Source: Candidatus Limnocylindria bacterium
GTDB lineage: Bacteria; Chloroflexota; Limnocylindria; P2-11E
Direction: 5' to 3'
Length of the DNA: 64,000 nt
NCBI GenBank assembly: GCA_038207785.1
Contig: JBBQZK010000001.1
Location: 9,405-73,404, forward strand
The notes beneath the pieces were generated by a model. The model did no database searches and was not told the origin of the DNA. It was given only the letters and a program-made list of their open reading frames with translations. Positions 34,891 to 61,123 of the stretch are shown piece by piece. Made by a program: the position numbers and the translations under genes. Position 1 is the first letter of the stretch. Each line of letters begins with the position of its first letter.

Positions 34891-39314
<4,424 letters not shown>

Positions 39315-39327
39315 CTCTTCCTCCTGT

Positions 39328-39573
39328 TTATTCGGCCGGGTGGATGCGTGCGTCGCGTACGTCGATGAGCGATGCGAACTGACTGAGCGCGAGCGCCGCT
39401 TCCTTCGGCACCGCGCCCGCCTCGATGCGGACGGACCAGCGCCCCGCGTCGGCGCGGTCGGCGCGGAACGACCGCAGGCCGAGCCTGCGGCGCCGCACGA
39501 CGGACAGGACGCGCTCGATCGCGCCGGGTACCGCGTCGACCGTGAGCTCGAAGGTGTGTTGATCGTCGCTCAC
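39328..39573 (-). CDS. ilvN: acetolactate synthase small (regulatory) subunit, short single-ACT form (81 aa)
   Basis: It is ACT-like (…[31 protein letters not shown]… …[13 protein letters not shown]…). The GTG overlaps the ilvB stop (GTGA) and has a GAGGAG RBS. Confidence 0.6.
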
Positions 39574-41285
39574 GAGAACGGCTCCTCGATGAGATCCGCG
39601 TTCGCGCCGCCCGGCGGCACGATCGGCCAGACATTCGCCTCGCGCTCGACGCGGATGTCGAGCACGACCGGACCCGGATGCGCTTTCGCGGTGGCGAGCG
39701 CGGGCGCGAGGTCGGCGCGCCGCTCGACGCAGAAGCCGAGGACGCCGTACGCATCCGCGAGCTTCACGTAGTCCGGGCTGCTGATGGGCGTCTGCGAGAT
39801 CCGGCCGTCGTGGAACAGCTGCTGCCACTGCCGGACCATGCCGAGGTAGCCGTTGTTCAGGATCGCGAGCTTCACCGGCGTGCCCTCCTGCACCGCGGTG
39901 CCAAGCTCCTGGATCGTCATCTGCGCGCCGCCGTCCCCGGCGATCGCCCAGACTTCCGACGCGGGCCGGCCGAGCTGCGCGCCGATCGCCGCGGGGAGCG
40001 CGTAGCCCATCGCGCCGAGGCCACCCGAGGTGAGGAACCGGTCCGGCTGGGTGAGCCGGAGGTGCTGCGCGGCCCACATCTGGTGCTGGCCGACGTCCGC
40101 GACGAAGTACGCGTCTTCGCTCGCCGCCTCGCGGATCGCGCGGATCACCAGCCGCGGCGGGAGCTCGACACGTCGCTCGTACTCGCTGACCCGCGGCCGC
40201 GGCCGGTCGTGCTCGAGGCGGGCCCGCCACTCGGGGCGCGTGACCTTCGGGAGGCGCGCGGCGATGGCGAACAGCACGGCACCGGCGTCGCCGAGGATGC
40301 CGAGTGCCGTCGGCACGTTCTTGCCGAGCTGCGTCGCGTCGATGTCCGCGTGGATGATGGCGGCCCGCGGCGCGAACGCGCTGATCTTGCCGGTGACGCG
40401 ATCATCGAACCGCAGACCCACGCCGAGGATGACGTCGGCGTCGTTGACCATCCGGTTCGCGGCTGCGCTCCCGTGCATGCCGAGCATGCCCGCGGCGAGC
40501 GGATGTTCTTCGGAGATCGCGCCGATGCCGAGGAGGGTCGTGACGATCGGCGCGTCGATGCGCTCGGCAAGGGCCCGCAGCTCACCGTGCGCGCCGGCCA
40601 GGCGGACGCCCTGACCGGCGATGATCACCGGCCGCGCCGCGCCCTGGAGGAGCGCCGCCGCGCGGTCGAGCGCGACCGGATCCGCTCCGGCCGGGGGTGG
40701 CGGCGCGAACGCGCTCTCAGCACGTGCGCGCGCCGCCGTCGCGCGCAGCTGGATGTCCTTCGGGATGTCGACGACGACCGGACCCGGCCGGCCGGCACGC
40801 GCGACCGCGAACGCCTGGTGGATCGTGGGCTCGATGTCCTCGACCCGCTCGACGAGGAACGCGTGCTTCGTGACGGCGCCGACCAGCCCGAGGACGTCGG
40901 TCTCCTGGAACGCGTCGCGTCCCATGAGCGGCGTCGACACCTGGCCGGTGATCGCCACGACCGGGACGCTGTCCATGTACGCGCAGGCGAGCCCGGTCAC
41001 AAGGTTCGTGGCTCCGGGGCCGGAGGTCGCGACGCAGACGCCGGCGCGTCCGGTGGCCCGCGCGTAGCCATCGGCCATGTGCGCTGCACCCTGCTCGTGC
41101 CGCACGAGCACGTGATGGACGCGCGGATGGTCGGGGAGTGCGTCGTACAGCGGAAGGCAGGCGCCCCCGGGATAGCCGAAGACGACGTCGGCGCCGGCGT
41201 GCTCGAGGGCACGCCACACGAGGTCGGCACCGCGCAGCGTGACCGCGTCGGCTGCCGGGATCGCCGGCCGGATCTGCGTCGCCAT
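39570..41285 (-). CDS. ilvB: acetolactate synthase large subunit
   Basis: It has the TPP/FAD ALS fold (…GYPGGACLPLYDAL… …GDGGAQMTIQELGT…) and a GAAGGAGG RBS. Confidence 0.9.
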   Translation of the reverse strand: MATQIRPAIPAADAVTLRGADLVWRALEHAGADVVFGYPGGACLPLYDALPDHPRVHHVLVRHEQGAAHMADGYARATGRAGVCVATSGPGATNLVTGLACAYMDSVPVVAITGQVSTPLMGRDAFQETDVLGLVGAVTKHAFLVERVEDIEPTIHQAFAVARAGRPGPVVVDIPKDIQLRATAARARAESAFAPPPPAGADPVALDRAAALLQGAARPVIIAGQGVRLAGAHGELRALAERIDAPIVTTLLGIGAISEEHPLAAGMLGMHGSAAANRMVNDADVILGVGLRFDDRVTGKISAFAPRAAIIHADIDATQLGKNVPTALGILGDAGAVLFAIAARLPKVTRPEWRARLEHDRPRPRVSEYERRVELPPRLVIRAIREAASEDAYFVADVGQHQMWAAQHLRLTQPDRFLTSGGLGAMGYALPAAIGAQLGRPASEVWAIAGDGGAQMTIQELGTAVQEGTPVKLAILNNGYLGMVRQWQQLFHDGRISQTPISSPDYVKLADAYGVLGFCVERRADLAPALATAKAHPGPVVLDIRVEREANVWPIVPPGGANADLIEEPFS

Positions 41286-41304
41286 GAGCGGGCCTCCTTC
41301 TCGC

Positions 41305-41341
41305 GTACATAAGAGGAAGGCCTCCCATTGCTGGGAGGCCT
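41305..41341 (-). terminator. ilvB leader attenuator: a 10-bp GC hairpin (AGGCCUCCCA-GCAA-UGGGAGGCCU) followed by UUCCUCUUAUGU
   Basis: It lies about 30 nt downstream of the leader-peptide stop and about 20 nt upstream of the ilvB RBS. An alternative pairing, CUGGGAGGC (overlapping the leader stop) with GCCUCCCAG, would form an anti-terminator. Confidence 0.55.
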
Positions 41342-41372
41342 CCGTGGTGGGTTCTGCGTGTCGCCTGTGCCG

Positions 41373-41447
41373 CTAGCCTCCCAGCCGTCTCCCATCGCCC
41401 TCAATAAGGACGATGCCGATAACGACGACGAGGCCGAGCTGGCGCAT
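41373..41447 (-). CDS. ilv operon leader peptide MRQLGLVVVIGIVLIEGDGRRLGG
   Basis: It is a 24-codon ORF with 10 of 13 consecutive codons Val/Ile/Leu. It sits immediately upstream of the attenuator hairpin. Confidence 0.55.
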   Translation of the reverse strand: MRQLGLVVVIGIVLIEGDGRRLGG

Positions 41448-41524
41448 CAGGAAGATGGACGATGCGGCACGCGCACCGGCACGGTCAACGCTCGCGGCCG
41501 AAGTCGGTGCACCATGCACAGTGC

Positions 41525-42217
41525 TCACGACGCGAGCTCCTCGAGCGCGGTCTGGCCGAGCACGGCGAGGTACAGCGTCACGCGCTGGCCGGCATCCTCG
41601 AGGTCGGCTCCGGTGAGCTCGCCGATCCGCCTGAGGCGCTGGCGCACGGTGTTGCGGTGCAGGAACAGCGCGCGGGCAACGCCGTTCACGCTGCCATGCG
41701 ACCGCAGGAACTCCTCGAGCGTCCGGAGCTCCTCGCGCTGGGCCTGCTCGGCGAGCGGGCCGAGGACCGCGCGGCAGAAGGTGCGGATCTCCTCTGTCGG
41801 CCGGCCGAGGACGAAGCAGTACGGGCCGAGTTCGGCGAACGCGGTGACGCGCCCGTGGCCGTTGAGCGCGCGCCCCACGCGCACCGCCTGTTCGGCCTGC
41901 AACACGACGAGCTGGAGGGAACGCTCGCGATCGCGCGGACCGGCGATGCCGACCGAGAGCGTCGGATCGCCGAGCGCGTCGGCGACCGCGGCGCGAAGGC
42001 TGGCCGCCGCACCGGCAGGCTCGGCGCCGGGCGGCACGCGCTGGAGCGCGATGACCGTCGGTCCGCGTGCGCCGACGATCCGCGCGTCCGGTGGAAGCGC
42101 CCGGCGGACCGCACCGTGGAGCGACCGCAGGGTGCCCTCGGCCGCGCCCTGGAACGCGAACGCGTAGAGCGGCGATGGCGTCGTCGCCGGGGTCGTCCGC
42201 TCGGATCGCGCGTCCAC
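41525..42217 (-). CDS. PucR/CdaR-family-like transcriptional regulator (C-terminal PucR-type HTH)
   Basis: It has ...LRTLEEFLRSHGSVNGVARALFLHRNTVRQRLRRIGELTG.... It uses a GTG start with an AAGGAG RBS. Confidence 0.6.
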   Translation of the reverse strand: MDARSERTTPATTPSPLYAFAFQGAAEGTLRSLHGAVRRALPPDARIVGARGPTVIALQRVPPGAEPAGAAASLRAAVADALGDPTLSVGIAGPRDRERSLQLVVLQAEQAVRVGRALNGHGRVTAFAELGPYCFVLGRPTEEIRTFCRAVLGPLAEQAQREELRTLEEFLRSHGSVNGVARALFLHRNTVRQRLRRIGELTGADLEDAGQRVTLYLAVLGQTALEELAS

Positions 42218-42242
42218 CGCTCGCTCCTTTCATTTCGCACCG

Positions 42243-42273
42243 GAAACAGAAAAGACCTCCCGGTCTGGGAGGT
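42243..42273. terminator. GC hairpin (GACCTCCC-GGTCT-GGGAGGTC) with an A-run on one side and a T-rich tail on the other; candidate bidirectional intrinsic terminator
   Basis: On the minus strand the hairpin is followed by UUUUCUGUUUCC. It separates the ACT gene from the PucR-like gene. Confidence 0.5.
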
Positions 42274-42441
42274 CCTTGTTGGTGCCGGTCTCGATGTGTG
42301 TGCTACGCGGTCGTGGTGTTCCTCCCAGCGTCGTTCAAGCCCCACATGATGTGGAGCTCGATAACGATGGCGCGGAGGACGCTGGACCGCATCGCGACAA
42401 CGGTACATCCTGCCGGGGGTCCGGCCAAGCCCCAGGCAGTC

Positions 42442-60979: not shown

Positions 60980-61123
60980 CTAGTGCTGCCCCATCGTCAC
61001 GATGAGCACGATGATCAGGATCGACACAAGGAAGATCGGTATCGCCAGCGCCGCGAAGATGATGTGGTCCTGCTGCCGGTACTGCGGATCGGGCTTGTGC
61101 GGCGGGGTCCCATGAGCGGCCAT
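60980..61123 (-). CDS. hypothetical 47-aa single-TM protein
   Basis: It reads MAAHGTPPHKPDPQYRQQDHIIFAALAIPIFLVSILIIVLIVTMGQH. No RBS was evident. Confidence 0.3.
   Translation of the reverse strand: MAAHGTPPHKPDPQYRQQDHIIFAALAIPIFLVSILIIVLIVTMGQH

Follow-up and report, generated by a model that had tools for sequence, protein, structure and literature searches.

Introduction

Leader-peptide attenuation is a textbook mode of control, most of whose documented cases come from Proteobacteria, Actinobacteria and some Firmicutes. Its classical multivalent form is that of the ilvGMEDA (leader ilvL) and ilvBN (leader ivbL) operons of Escherichia coli and Salmonella, where the leaders mix Val, Ile and Leu codons, shortage of any one of the three amino acids can relieve termination, and alternative 1:2, 2:3 and 3:4 pairings govern an intrinsic terminator placed just before the first structural gene. 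Here we analyse a 64-kb stretch of DNA (the window) from a Candidatus Limnocylindria bacterium, in which an element directly upstream of ilvB is, on the strength of its sequence and of modelled RNA folds, very likely to control an ilvB-ilvN-ilvC-leuA-leuC-leuD operon by ribosome-mediated (leader-peptide) attenuation of transcription. The same pairing scheme is predicted as in the enteric leaders, and shortage of any one of the three amino acids would likewise be expected to relieve termination. The proteobacterial leaders differ from the window element in their dependence on a Shine-Dalgarno (SD) sequence for initiation and in their long unbroken U tracts; they are also unrelated to it in sequence, and their operons differ in content from the ilvBNC plus leuACD set found here.

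A second point of comparison is the ilvBNC operon of Corynebacterium glutamicum, whose ilvL attenuator is experimentally supported and has its leader start codon 1 nt from the start of transcription (PMC11857589). This attenuator (IlvL, MTIIRLVVVTARRLP; the 'ilvB-II motif'; PMC11857589, PMC10272879) shares with the window element the position of ilvB as first gene, a short Val/Ile/Leu-rich leader, a three-hairpin logic of anti-antiterminator, antiterminator and terminator, which in the window is predicted, and the lack of an SD together with a leaderless start of transcription, essentially at the leader start codon, as is expected in the window. However, it belongs to another phylum and has no detectable sequence similarity to the window element. 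Its leader peptide has 15 codons as against 24 here, its leader extends over 292 nt whereas only ∼160 nt separate the leader AUG from ilvB in the window, and in the window region 2 abuts the stop codon.

For Mycobacterium and Streptomyces, too, candidate ilvB leader peptides with terminators have been proposed (Seliverstov et al. 2005, PMC1262725). These high-GC, Gram-positive-type cases resemble the window element in having short open reading frames (ORFs) with runs of Ile, Val and Leu codons, and terminator hairpins, before ilvB, but their codon runs overlap the terminator and no clear antiterminator is described, whereas in the window the run is separate and the antiterminator clean (PMC1262725). 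The ilvB-OMG and Leptospira ilvB motifs, re-interpreted as attenuators with an upstream ORF (PMC10272879), likewise place an ORF rich in branched-chain codons within a conserved RNA before ilvB, but the alignments are longer (ilvB-OMG ∼210 nt, with a multistem junction) and have another consensus. None of the published ilvB-II, ilvB-OMG and Leptospira ilvB alignments resembles the window element, and the supplement of PMC10272879 mentions no member of the Chloroflexota. The initial annotation of the window proposed comparison with the Corynebacterium and Streptomyces ilvB leaders; these are analogues, not relatives, the host belonging to the class Limnocylindria of the phylum Chloroflexota and not to the Actinobacteria.

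For Chloroflexota or Limnocylindria we found no account of leader-peptide attenuation in the searchable literature, beyond whose reach lay the survey of Lopatovskaya et al. 2010. The proposed mechanism matches that of E. coli ilvGMEDA and ilvBN and of C. glutamicum ilvBNC, and no curated RNA family is matched; it is a known mechanism in a lineage and a sequence family that were previously uncatalogued.

A Val/Ile/Leu-rich leader ORF upstream of ilvB

All elements of the locus lie on the minus strand, with ilvB starting at 41285. Those that make up the proposed attenuator are as follows, in their order along that strand.

41483 to 41488, minus strand: promoter −35 box TTGACC; TTGAC is invariant across 11 aligned promoter regions
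41459 to 41464, minus strand: promoter −10 box CATCGT, after an 18-nt spacer; A2 and T6 are invariant in the alignment
41373 to 41447, minus strand: leader ORF of 24 codons, MRQLGLVVVIGIVLIEGDGRRLGG and stop, identified by translation; homologous leaders occur in 15 other loci
41430 to 41443, minus strand: region 1, GCCAGCUCGGCCUC, in the 5' portion of the leader ORF; in minimum free energy folds of ribosome-free RNA it pairs with region 2 plus the flank 3' of it
41375 to 41385, minus strand: region 2, the 5' strand of the antiterminator, GCUGGGAGGCU; the U that ends it also opens the UAG stop codon
41330 to 41343, minus strand: region 3, which from the folds contains both the terminator 5' arm (41343..41332) and the antiterminator 3' strand (41340..41330)
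41331 to 41328, minus strand: terminator loop GCAA
41316 to 41327, minus strand: region 4, the terminator 3' arm, UGGGAGGCCUUC; covariation in 6 of 11 pairs
41307 to 41318, minus strand: interrupted U-rich tail UUCCUCUUAUGU, overlapping the last stem pairs
41293 to 41300, minus strand: SD of ilvB, GAAGGAGG, read from the sequence
39570 to 41285, minus strand: ilvB, acetolactate synthase large subunit, the structural gene that the attenuator would control first (TIGR00118, 682.6 bits; cutoff 538)

The leader ORF lies just where the initial annotation had placed it, 5' of ilvB. Eleven of its 24 codons specify Val, Ile or Leu (four Leu, four Val and three Ile), and ten of these fall within codons 4–15 (LGLVVVIGIVLI). 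When compared with all small ORFs of 15–45 codons in the window (779 in number, taking all frames and every ATG or GTG start), it is the only one with 10 Val/Ile/Leu per 12 residues, the runners-up having 8, and its density of these residues is the highest among them. Another small ORF rich in Ile, Leu and Val, MSILIIVLIVTMGQH (61027..60980, minus), was set aside; a longer ORF encloses it, and downstream on its strand no biosynthetic gene is apparent. The leader is itself hidden within an ORF of 286 amino acids (aa) (41373..42233, minus; in frame with the leader), which had been called spurious. This judgement is borne out: the long ORF has no Pfam or NCBIfam match, and it overlaps a real regulator gene in another frame (42217..41525), which encodes a PucR-type helix-turn-helix (HTH) protein.

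A strict consensus promoter scan did not call the −10 box CATCGT. The leader start codon stands 11 nt past this box in the window and 6–11 nt past it among the aligned loci, and transcription is therefore expected to start at, or just before, the leader AUG. No purine-rich SD sequence precedes the leader ORF in the window or in any homologous leader. Because there is no SD and the start codon lies so close to a conserved −10 box, we infer that the leader is translated from a leaderless or near-leaderless mRNA. The reading frame of the leader is preserved through 3-nt and 9-nt indels among the homologues, which gives indirect support for translation.

Terminator and competing folds

The terminator hairpin AGGCCUCCCA-GCAA-UGGGAGGCCU (41341..41318), which can be extended to 12 pairs (41343..41316), starts 29–31 nt past the leader stop, and its tail UUCCUCUUAUGU is followed by the ilvB SD. 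A terminator scan of 41200..41700 returned this hairpin as its one site, where 0.0 were expected from shuffled sequences. A 10-bp GC hairpin with a U-rich tail, some 30 nt past the stop and before the ilvB ribosome-binding site, had been reported initially; the hairpin and its position stand (10–12 bp, 29–31 nt), but the tail is a broken rather than an uninterrupted U tract. The tails of homologues read CUUUUGUUG, UUUCAUUUG, UUUGGUUGA and similar.

The second point to note is that the RNA at the leader stop can pair with the 5' arm of this hairpin. The reverse complement of CUGGGAGGC (41384..41376) is identical to GCCUCCCAG (41339..41331), and the full helix of GCUGGGAGGCU (41385..41375) with GGCCUCCCAGC (41340..41330) has 10 Watson-Crick pairs and one G-U pair. 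The alternative pairing first proposed is thus confirmed, the predicted helix of 11 bp being longer than the 9 bp then noted. As this antiterminator shares region 3 with the terminator, the two are mutually exclusive.

Folding of the RNA, as the initial annotation had suggested, does predict the alternative pairing. The duplex of regions 2 and 3 in the window has a predicted energy of −25.0 kcal/mol, whereas shuffled sequences average −15.2 (p = 0.003), and the 185-nt leader RNA folds at −84.3 kcal/mol (z = −2.8), with none of 200 shuffles folding as well. The 1:2 hairpin within the ORF reaches −43.8 kcal/mol (z = −4.0 against dinucleotide shuffles); its topology is common to 12 of 13 homologues, with z ranging from −0.5 to −4.0.

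We also simulated the stalled ribosome, with the first, the middle or the last of the Val/Ile/Leu codons in its A site, masking the RNA to 12 nt beyond and omitting region 4 as untranscribed. Folded in this way, region 3 paired with region 2 in all 13 homologues. When the ribosome was put instead at the stop codon, where it covers region 2, the terminator formed in each of the 11 homologues so folded.

Conservation of the element with ilvB

Contigs carrying ilvB homologues comprised 12 obtained by exact look-up (69–86% identity) and at least four close loci from a metagenome scan. The comparison set (handles of the form L081) consisted of 15 distinct loci with enough upstream sequence, besides the window, with ilvB 69–88% identical. 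The closest ilvB proteins (85–88% identical) come from metagenomes and metagenome-assembled genomes (MAGs) labelled Candidatus Limnocylindria or Chloroflexota; a contig scan with full-length ilvB gave, among the matches listed, none closer than 54% identity, but supplied the distant Chloroflexota and Dormibacterota loci used below. An exact look-up of the ilvB of the window itself found no record of that sequence.

In all 15 other loci a leader ORF of 23–30 codons with 8–13 Val/Ile/Leu is followed by a terminator, examples of the leader being MKGLVVVVIGIVLIGGDGRRLGG, MRQQLVVVVVVIGLVLLEGDGRRLGG, MNGRGLLPLLIVVLLEGTGRRLGG, MNGRVVIALILEVLLVGTGDRAGG, MDRISLLPGLVLVLLIGRARHRLGG, MRSGLVLLAIAIVLVEGTGEHLGG and MQHGLVLLVLDTVLVITGTRSGLGG. 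At 13 loci, of type A, the leader closes with GG and a stop codon, just where region 2 ends. L084 and L087 have the stop 15 nt past region 2, and in them a variant leader, MHDLVLGIVVIELPIVIGGPNDAGRNTETA, with its terminator stands before a 64-aa ORF, which is followed by ilvB. The element stays with ilvB as the upstream gene varies, this being a PucR-like gene, an aminotransferase gene (L092), a divergent leuB (L107) or a divergent leuA (L109).

Two near-identical forest-soil contigs differ within the leader itself: L083 (2338-2418) has, relative to L082 (2347-2418), a 9-nt in-frame expansion that adds three Val codons (VVV to VVVVVV). This looks like a natural tuning of attenuator sensitivity, by slippage in the GTCGTT runs.

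An alignment of 14 sequences (A4), fitted to a covariance model, was used to assess the two competing helices. For the terminator, 96.1% of cells are paired and 6 of the 11 pairs have both partners changed, a result equalled by none of 500 shuffles, and controls in which the helix was slid gave 34–65%. For the antiterminator, 88.8% of cells are paired as against 42–64% in the slid controls; these counts are conservative, because L084 and L087 are one column off in region 2.

The predicted duplex of regions 2 and 3 was also compared with shuffled sequences, leaving out three rows (L096-A, L090-B and L088-B) for which the wrong hairpin had been picked. Of the 12 type-A elements, 9 have a duplex stronger than the shuffles (p ≤ 0.03), as do most of the other attenuators that the analysis turned up. 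Across lineages the two regions co-vary, pairing as CGGGAGGCU/AGCCUCCCG in L088, CGGGAGGCCC/GGGCCUCCCG in L082-C, GUCGGGGGCU/AGCCCCCGAC in the Dormibacterota locus L071 and GUGGGAGGCG/CGCCUCCCAC in the Thermomicrobiales locus L001. Moreover, the motif CUGGGAGG is read as ..R-L-G-G-stop in the type-A leaders and as ..D-A-G-R.. in the type-B leaders described below; kept in two frames, it points to a constraint on the RNA and not on the peptide. Taken together, the comparison with shuffles, the co-variation and the use of two frames support selection on the 2:3 pairing at the level of the RNA.

Proposed mechanism and alternative explanations

From the sequence elements, their conservation, the covariation of the terminator and the predicted alternative folds, we infer a course of events from the start of transcription through leader translation to the response to amino-acid supply. 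Transcription would start from the sigma-70-type promoter (TTGACC, 18 nt, CATCGT) a few nt before the leader AUG, and the leader mRNA would therefore be leaderless or nearly so. With ample charged Val-, Ile- and Leu-tRNA, the ribosome would reach the UAG and cover region 2, the GC-rich 3:4 terminator would form and RNA polymerase would halt before ilvB. Were any of the three amino acids scarce, the ribosome would stall within codons 4–15, with 5 nt or more between its leading edge and region 2, which could then capture the newly made region 3 in the 11-bp antiterminator, no terminator would form and the operon would be transcribed. Without translation, region 1 would pair with region 2, again favouring termination. 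At the level of sequence, the earlier reading of the element as a classic attenuator is thus supported, since the leader ORF, the terminator, the mutually exclusive antiterminator and a predicted 1:2 hairpin are present, and the element is kept in 15 other loci.

Several observations weigh on the other side, chief among them the Streptomyces case given last. The U tract of the terminator is interrupted. In the class alignment the antiterminator shows no double-sided change, 185 of 500 shuffles reach its covariation score, and its helix contains an A-C mismatch in L095; the pairing is conserved, but this test does not prove selection for pairing. The ribosome-free equilibrium fold favours 2:3 over 1:2 in 8 of the 13 homologues, though not in the window, and on account of this, and of the wide range of z-scores, the 1:2 anti-antiterminator helix is plausible but weak. 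Finally, mutation of the candidate regulatory codons in the ilvB leader of Streptomyces coelicolor left regulation unaffected (PMC1262725).

The similar look of that S. coelicolor leader lends some weight to an alternative in which the leader ORF and terminator are real but control does not depend on codon-specific stalling. The terminator could be a constitutive damper, or could be modulated by the neighbouring PucR-type regulator, an RNA-binding protein or guanosine tetraphosphate (ppGpp) and nucleoside triphosphates acting on the polymerase, while translation of the ORF would merely open the RNA or couple transcription to translation. The lack of significant covariation in the antiterminator within the class fits this alternative, as do two features of the locus, an operator-like repeat that is conserved and a regulator gene of its own, which would provide a second layer of control. 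We nevertheless consider it improbable. The enrichment in Val, Ile and Leu is found in every homologue despite their differing peptides, the Val codons of L083 have expanded in frame, and region 2 always lies at, or at most 15 nt upstream of, the stop, for which there would be no rationale if ribosome positioning did not matter. The C. glutamicum analogue, furthermore, needs both its Val codons and its leader start codon (PMC11857589).

A reading in which the hairpin does no more than end transcription of the upstream PucR-like gene, the small ORF being a chance intergenic frame, is very unlikely. The hairpin does lie 182 nt 3' of the regulator stop on the same strand, and read-through from an upstream promoter would probably end there. 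Yet the ORF and hairpin also precede ilvB where the neighbour is an aminotransferase gene or a divergent leuB or leuA, including loci without any co-oriented upstream gene, and because the element occurs in these several contexts a role as mere upstream-gene terminator can be excluded. A conserved promoter stands between the regulator stop and the ORF, and the ORF is both the top Val/Ile/Leu outlier among 779 and conserved in frame.

We give equally little credence to the ORF being conserved as a functional small hydrophobic (membrane) peptide. Its hydrophobic core and C-terminal EGDGRRLGG are indeed conserved among the closest relatives, but this C-terminal part coincides with the RNA of region 2, and the type-B leaders keep the RNA motif in another frame (NDAGR as against RLGG). 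More distant leaders are alike in Val/Ile/Leu richness only and not in sequence, and in every case a terminator lies between the ORF and ilvB.

Least credible of all is a ligand- or tRNA-binding RNA such as a T-box, a ppGpp riboswitch or another riboswitch: some bacterial ilvB genes are under ppGpp riboswitches (PMC10272879), but a permissive Rfam scan of 40800..42000 gave chance hairpin matches only (E ≥ 1), T-box and ppGpp (ykkC-type) families had no match at E ≤ 10 or at gathering thresholds, no family at all reached its gathering threshold in the whole window, and the RNA lacks a conserved unpaired core beyond the three hairpin strands.

A second putative attenuator, an inverted repeat and possible layered control

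The covariance model (region 2 through terminator) finds a second element in the window, at 42343..42239 (33.3 bits, E = 1e-6). It belongs to a second attenuator (attenuator B; 42428..42242, minus) directly 5' of the PucR-like gene, so that the regulator is flanked by two Val/Ile/Leu attenuators. The features of this region are listed below.

43221 to 42442, minus strand: gene for a protein with ACT and DUF5612 domains, just 5' of the attenuator cluster
42400 to 42428, minus strand: promoter-like site of attenuator B, TTGGCC, 17 nt, TACCGT; the start codon is 7 nt further on
42303 to 42392, minus strand: second leader ORF, MRSSVLRAIVIELHIMWGLNDAGRNTTTA and stop (type B); homologues include MRSVVLGIIVIELLMGGSDDAGRNTATA
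42321 to 42328, minus strand: region 2 of attenuator B, CUGGGAGG, pairing with CCUCCCAG at 42272..42265; its frame differs from that of type A
42251 to 42277, minus strand: terminator of attenuator B, AAGGACCUCCC-AGACC-GGGAGGUCUUU, with U-rich tail UCUGUUUCC; found by covariance model match and fold
41525 to 42217, minus strand: PucR-family HTH regulator gene, between the two attenuators (PF13556 HTH_30, E = 1.1e-21); its stop codon is 41527..41525
41507 to 41519, no strand assigned: inverted repeat GTGCA-TGG-TGCAC (GTGCA-N3-TGCAC), then CGACTT, 18 nt 5' of the −35 box

On folding, attenuator B shows the same stall-dependent switch as the ilvB leader. Ten of the 15 other loci have the PucR-like gene in synteny with ilvB, and in related loci type-B leaders precede either the regulator gene or the 64-aa ORF. 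L082 (1165-1665) and L083, which has the same layout, contain three tandem attenuators, before the 64-aa ORF, the PucR-like gene and ilvB. In L084 (2050-2500) and L087 (2133-2500) the PucR-like gene is cut to a C-terminal remnant, and the type-B attenuator stands ahead of the 64-aa ORF and then ilvB. The start of the 64-aa ORF resembles that of the window regulator (MDARRE.. as against VDARSE..).

The inverted repeat is the sole perfect match to GTGCA-N3-TGCAC in the window. The six closest ilvB-leader promoters keep it, and in L081 it also stands before an ACT/DUF5612 gene (L081:277-294). We regard it as a candidate operator, at which a transcription factor, possibly the adjacent PucR-like protein, would bind. 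The operator/promoter arrangement seen before the ilvB leader recurs in L081 before the homologue of the ACT/DUF5612 gene, which hints that this gene belongs to the same branched-chain amino-acid regulon.

One may speculate that an attenuated regulator, beside a conserved operator on an attenuated ilvB promoter, forms a layered circuit. The fullest version, a two-tier feed-forward circuit for branched-chain amino acids that includes an ancestral and widespread type of attenuator, strikes us as doubtful. The first attenuator (42428..42242) may gate the short PucR-family regulator, and the regulator may act at the putative operator (41519..41507) on the leaderless promoter before the ilvB attenuator. 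In such an arrangement tRNA charging may be sensed twice, and transcription initiation may be coupled to elongation. Transcripts reading through from the first promoter may carry an internal ilvB leader that has no SD, cannot be translated and ends the transcript at the second terminator, whereby the two tiers would be insulated. The attenuator type with GGGAGG/CCUCCC stems may in turn be the ancestral, widespread device of Chloroflexota and Dormibacterota.

Similar elements in other lineages

Weaker matches to the model occur directly 5' of ilvB in at least six other loci, where a terminator is accompanied by a complementary region 2. They span at least four other Chloroflexota lineages, with Ktedonobacteria, Thermomicrobia-type and Anaerolineae genomes among them, and Dormibacterota.

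L008:2816-2913, Thermosporothrix (Ktedonobacteria): model match; no leader ORF made out
L005:2794-2878, Sphaerobacter: model match and Val/Ile/Leu-rich leader ORF
L010:2741-2837, Anaerolineales: model match and Val/Ile/Leu-rich leader ORF
L001:1244-1332, Thermomicrobiales: model match; leader ORF read by eye
L071:1251-1345, Dormibacterota MAG: model match and Val/Ile/Leu-rich leader ORF
L074:2880-2968, Dormibacterota MAG: model match and Val/Ile/Leu-rich leader ORF

Judging from these sequences, the attenuator may be widespread in Chloroflexota and Dormibacterota. The shared GGGAGG/CCUCCC motif supports no conclusion, because the model search is biased towards such stems. In a low-GC metagenome contig (L105:1321-1428), ilvB comes after the ORF MMPLSFAAIILILSLVVLVISNGLLGYAVRANSFS and a hairpin accompanied by a T run, and this is probably another, unrelated ilvB leader-peptide attenuator.

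Gene order of the operon

The genes downstream run in the order ilvB-ilvN-ilvC-leuA-leuC-leuD. The term 'ilv-leu operon' used in the initial annotation is apt, ilvB, ilvC, leuA, leuC and leuD all being identified by family profiles.

39328 to 39576, minus strand: ilvN-like small subunit of 82 aa with an ACT domain (PF13710 ACT_5, E = 1.6e-6)
38265 to 39314, minus strand: ilvC, ketol-acid reductoisomerase (NF004017, 524 bits)
38080 to 38262, minus strand: 60-aa ORF between ilvC and leuA, with no Pfam match
36317 to 38089, minus strand: leuA, 2-isopropylmalate synthase, start codon not fixed (Pfam HMGL-like, IPMS_D2, LeuA_dimer)
..34887, minus strand: leuC (Pfam Aconitase/Aconitase_C set for leuC and leuD)
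34890 to 34246, minus strand: leuD (same Pfam set)

A lone ACT_5 domain makes up the 82-aa small subunit, whose gene and the stop codon of ilvB overlap. The subunit is much shorter than the usual IlvN/IlvH of Gram-positive-type bacteria, which has ∼170 aa. Relatives have ORFs of 76–94 aa at the ilvN-like position, mostly with ACT_5, the 94-aa ORF of L107 and L108 at this position having no Pfam match. An ORF of 58–66 aa follows ilvC in most related loci (L081, L084, L086, L087, L088, L090, L092 and L107); because it keeps this place, the 60-aa ORF of the window would appear to be a conserved small protein of the ilv-leu operon, as the comparison suggests.

Significance

These results provide comparative evidence for attenuation in an uncultured class of Chloroflexota that is abundant in soil and freshwater. 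Annotators gain a small ORF and an RNA element that gene callers at present bury under a spurious 286-aa ORF, and the covariance model offers a seed for a family which Rfam does not recognise. The locus also adds a non-actinobacterial case of a leader peptide that is apparently translated from a leaderless mRNA. Finally, the tandem attenuators around a PucR-type regulator suggest that branched-chain amino-acid synthesis may be under layered control.

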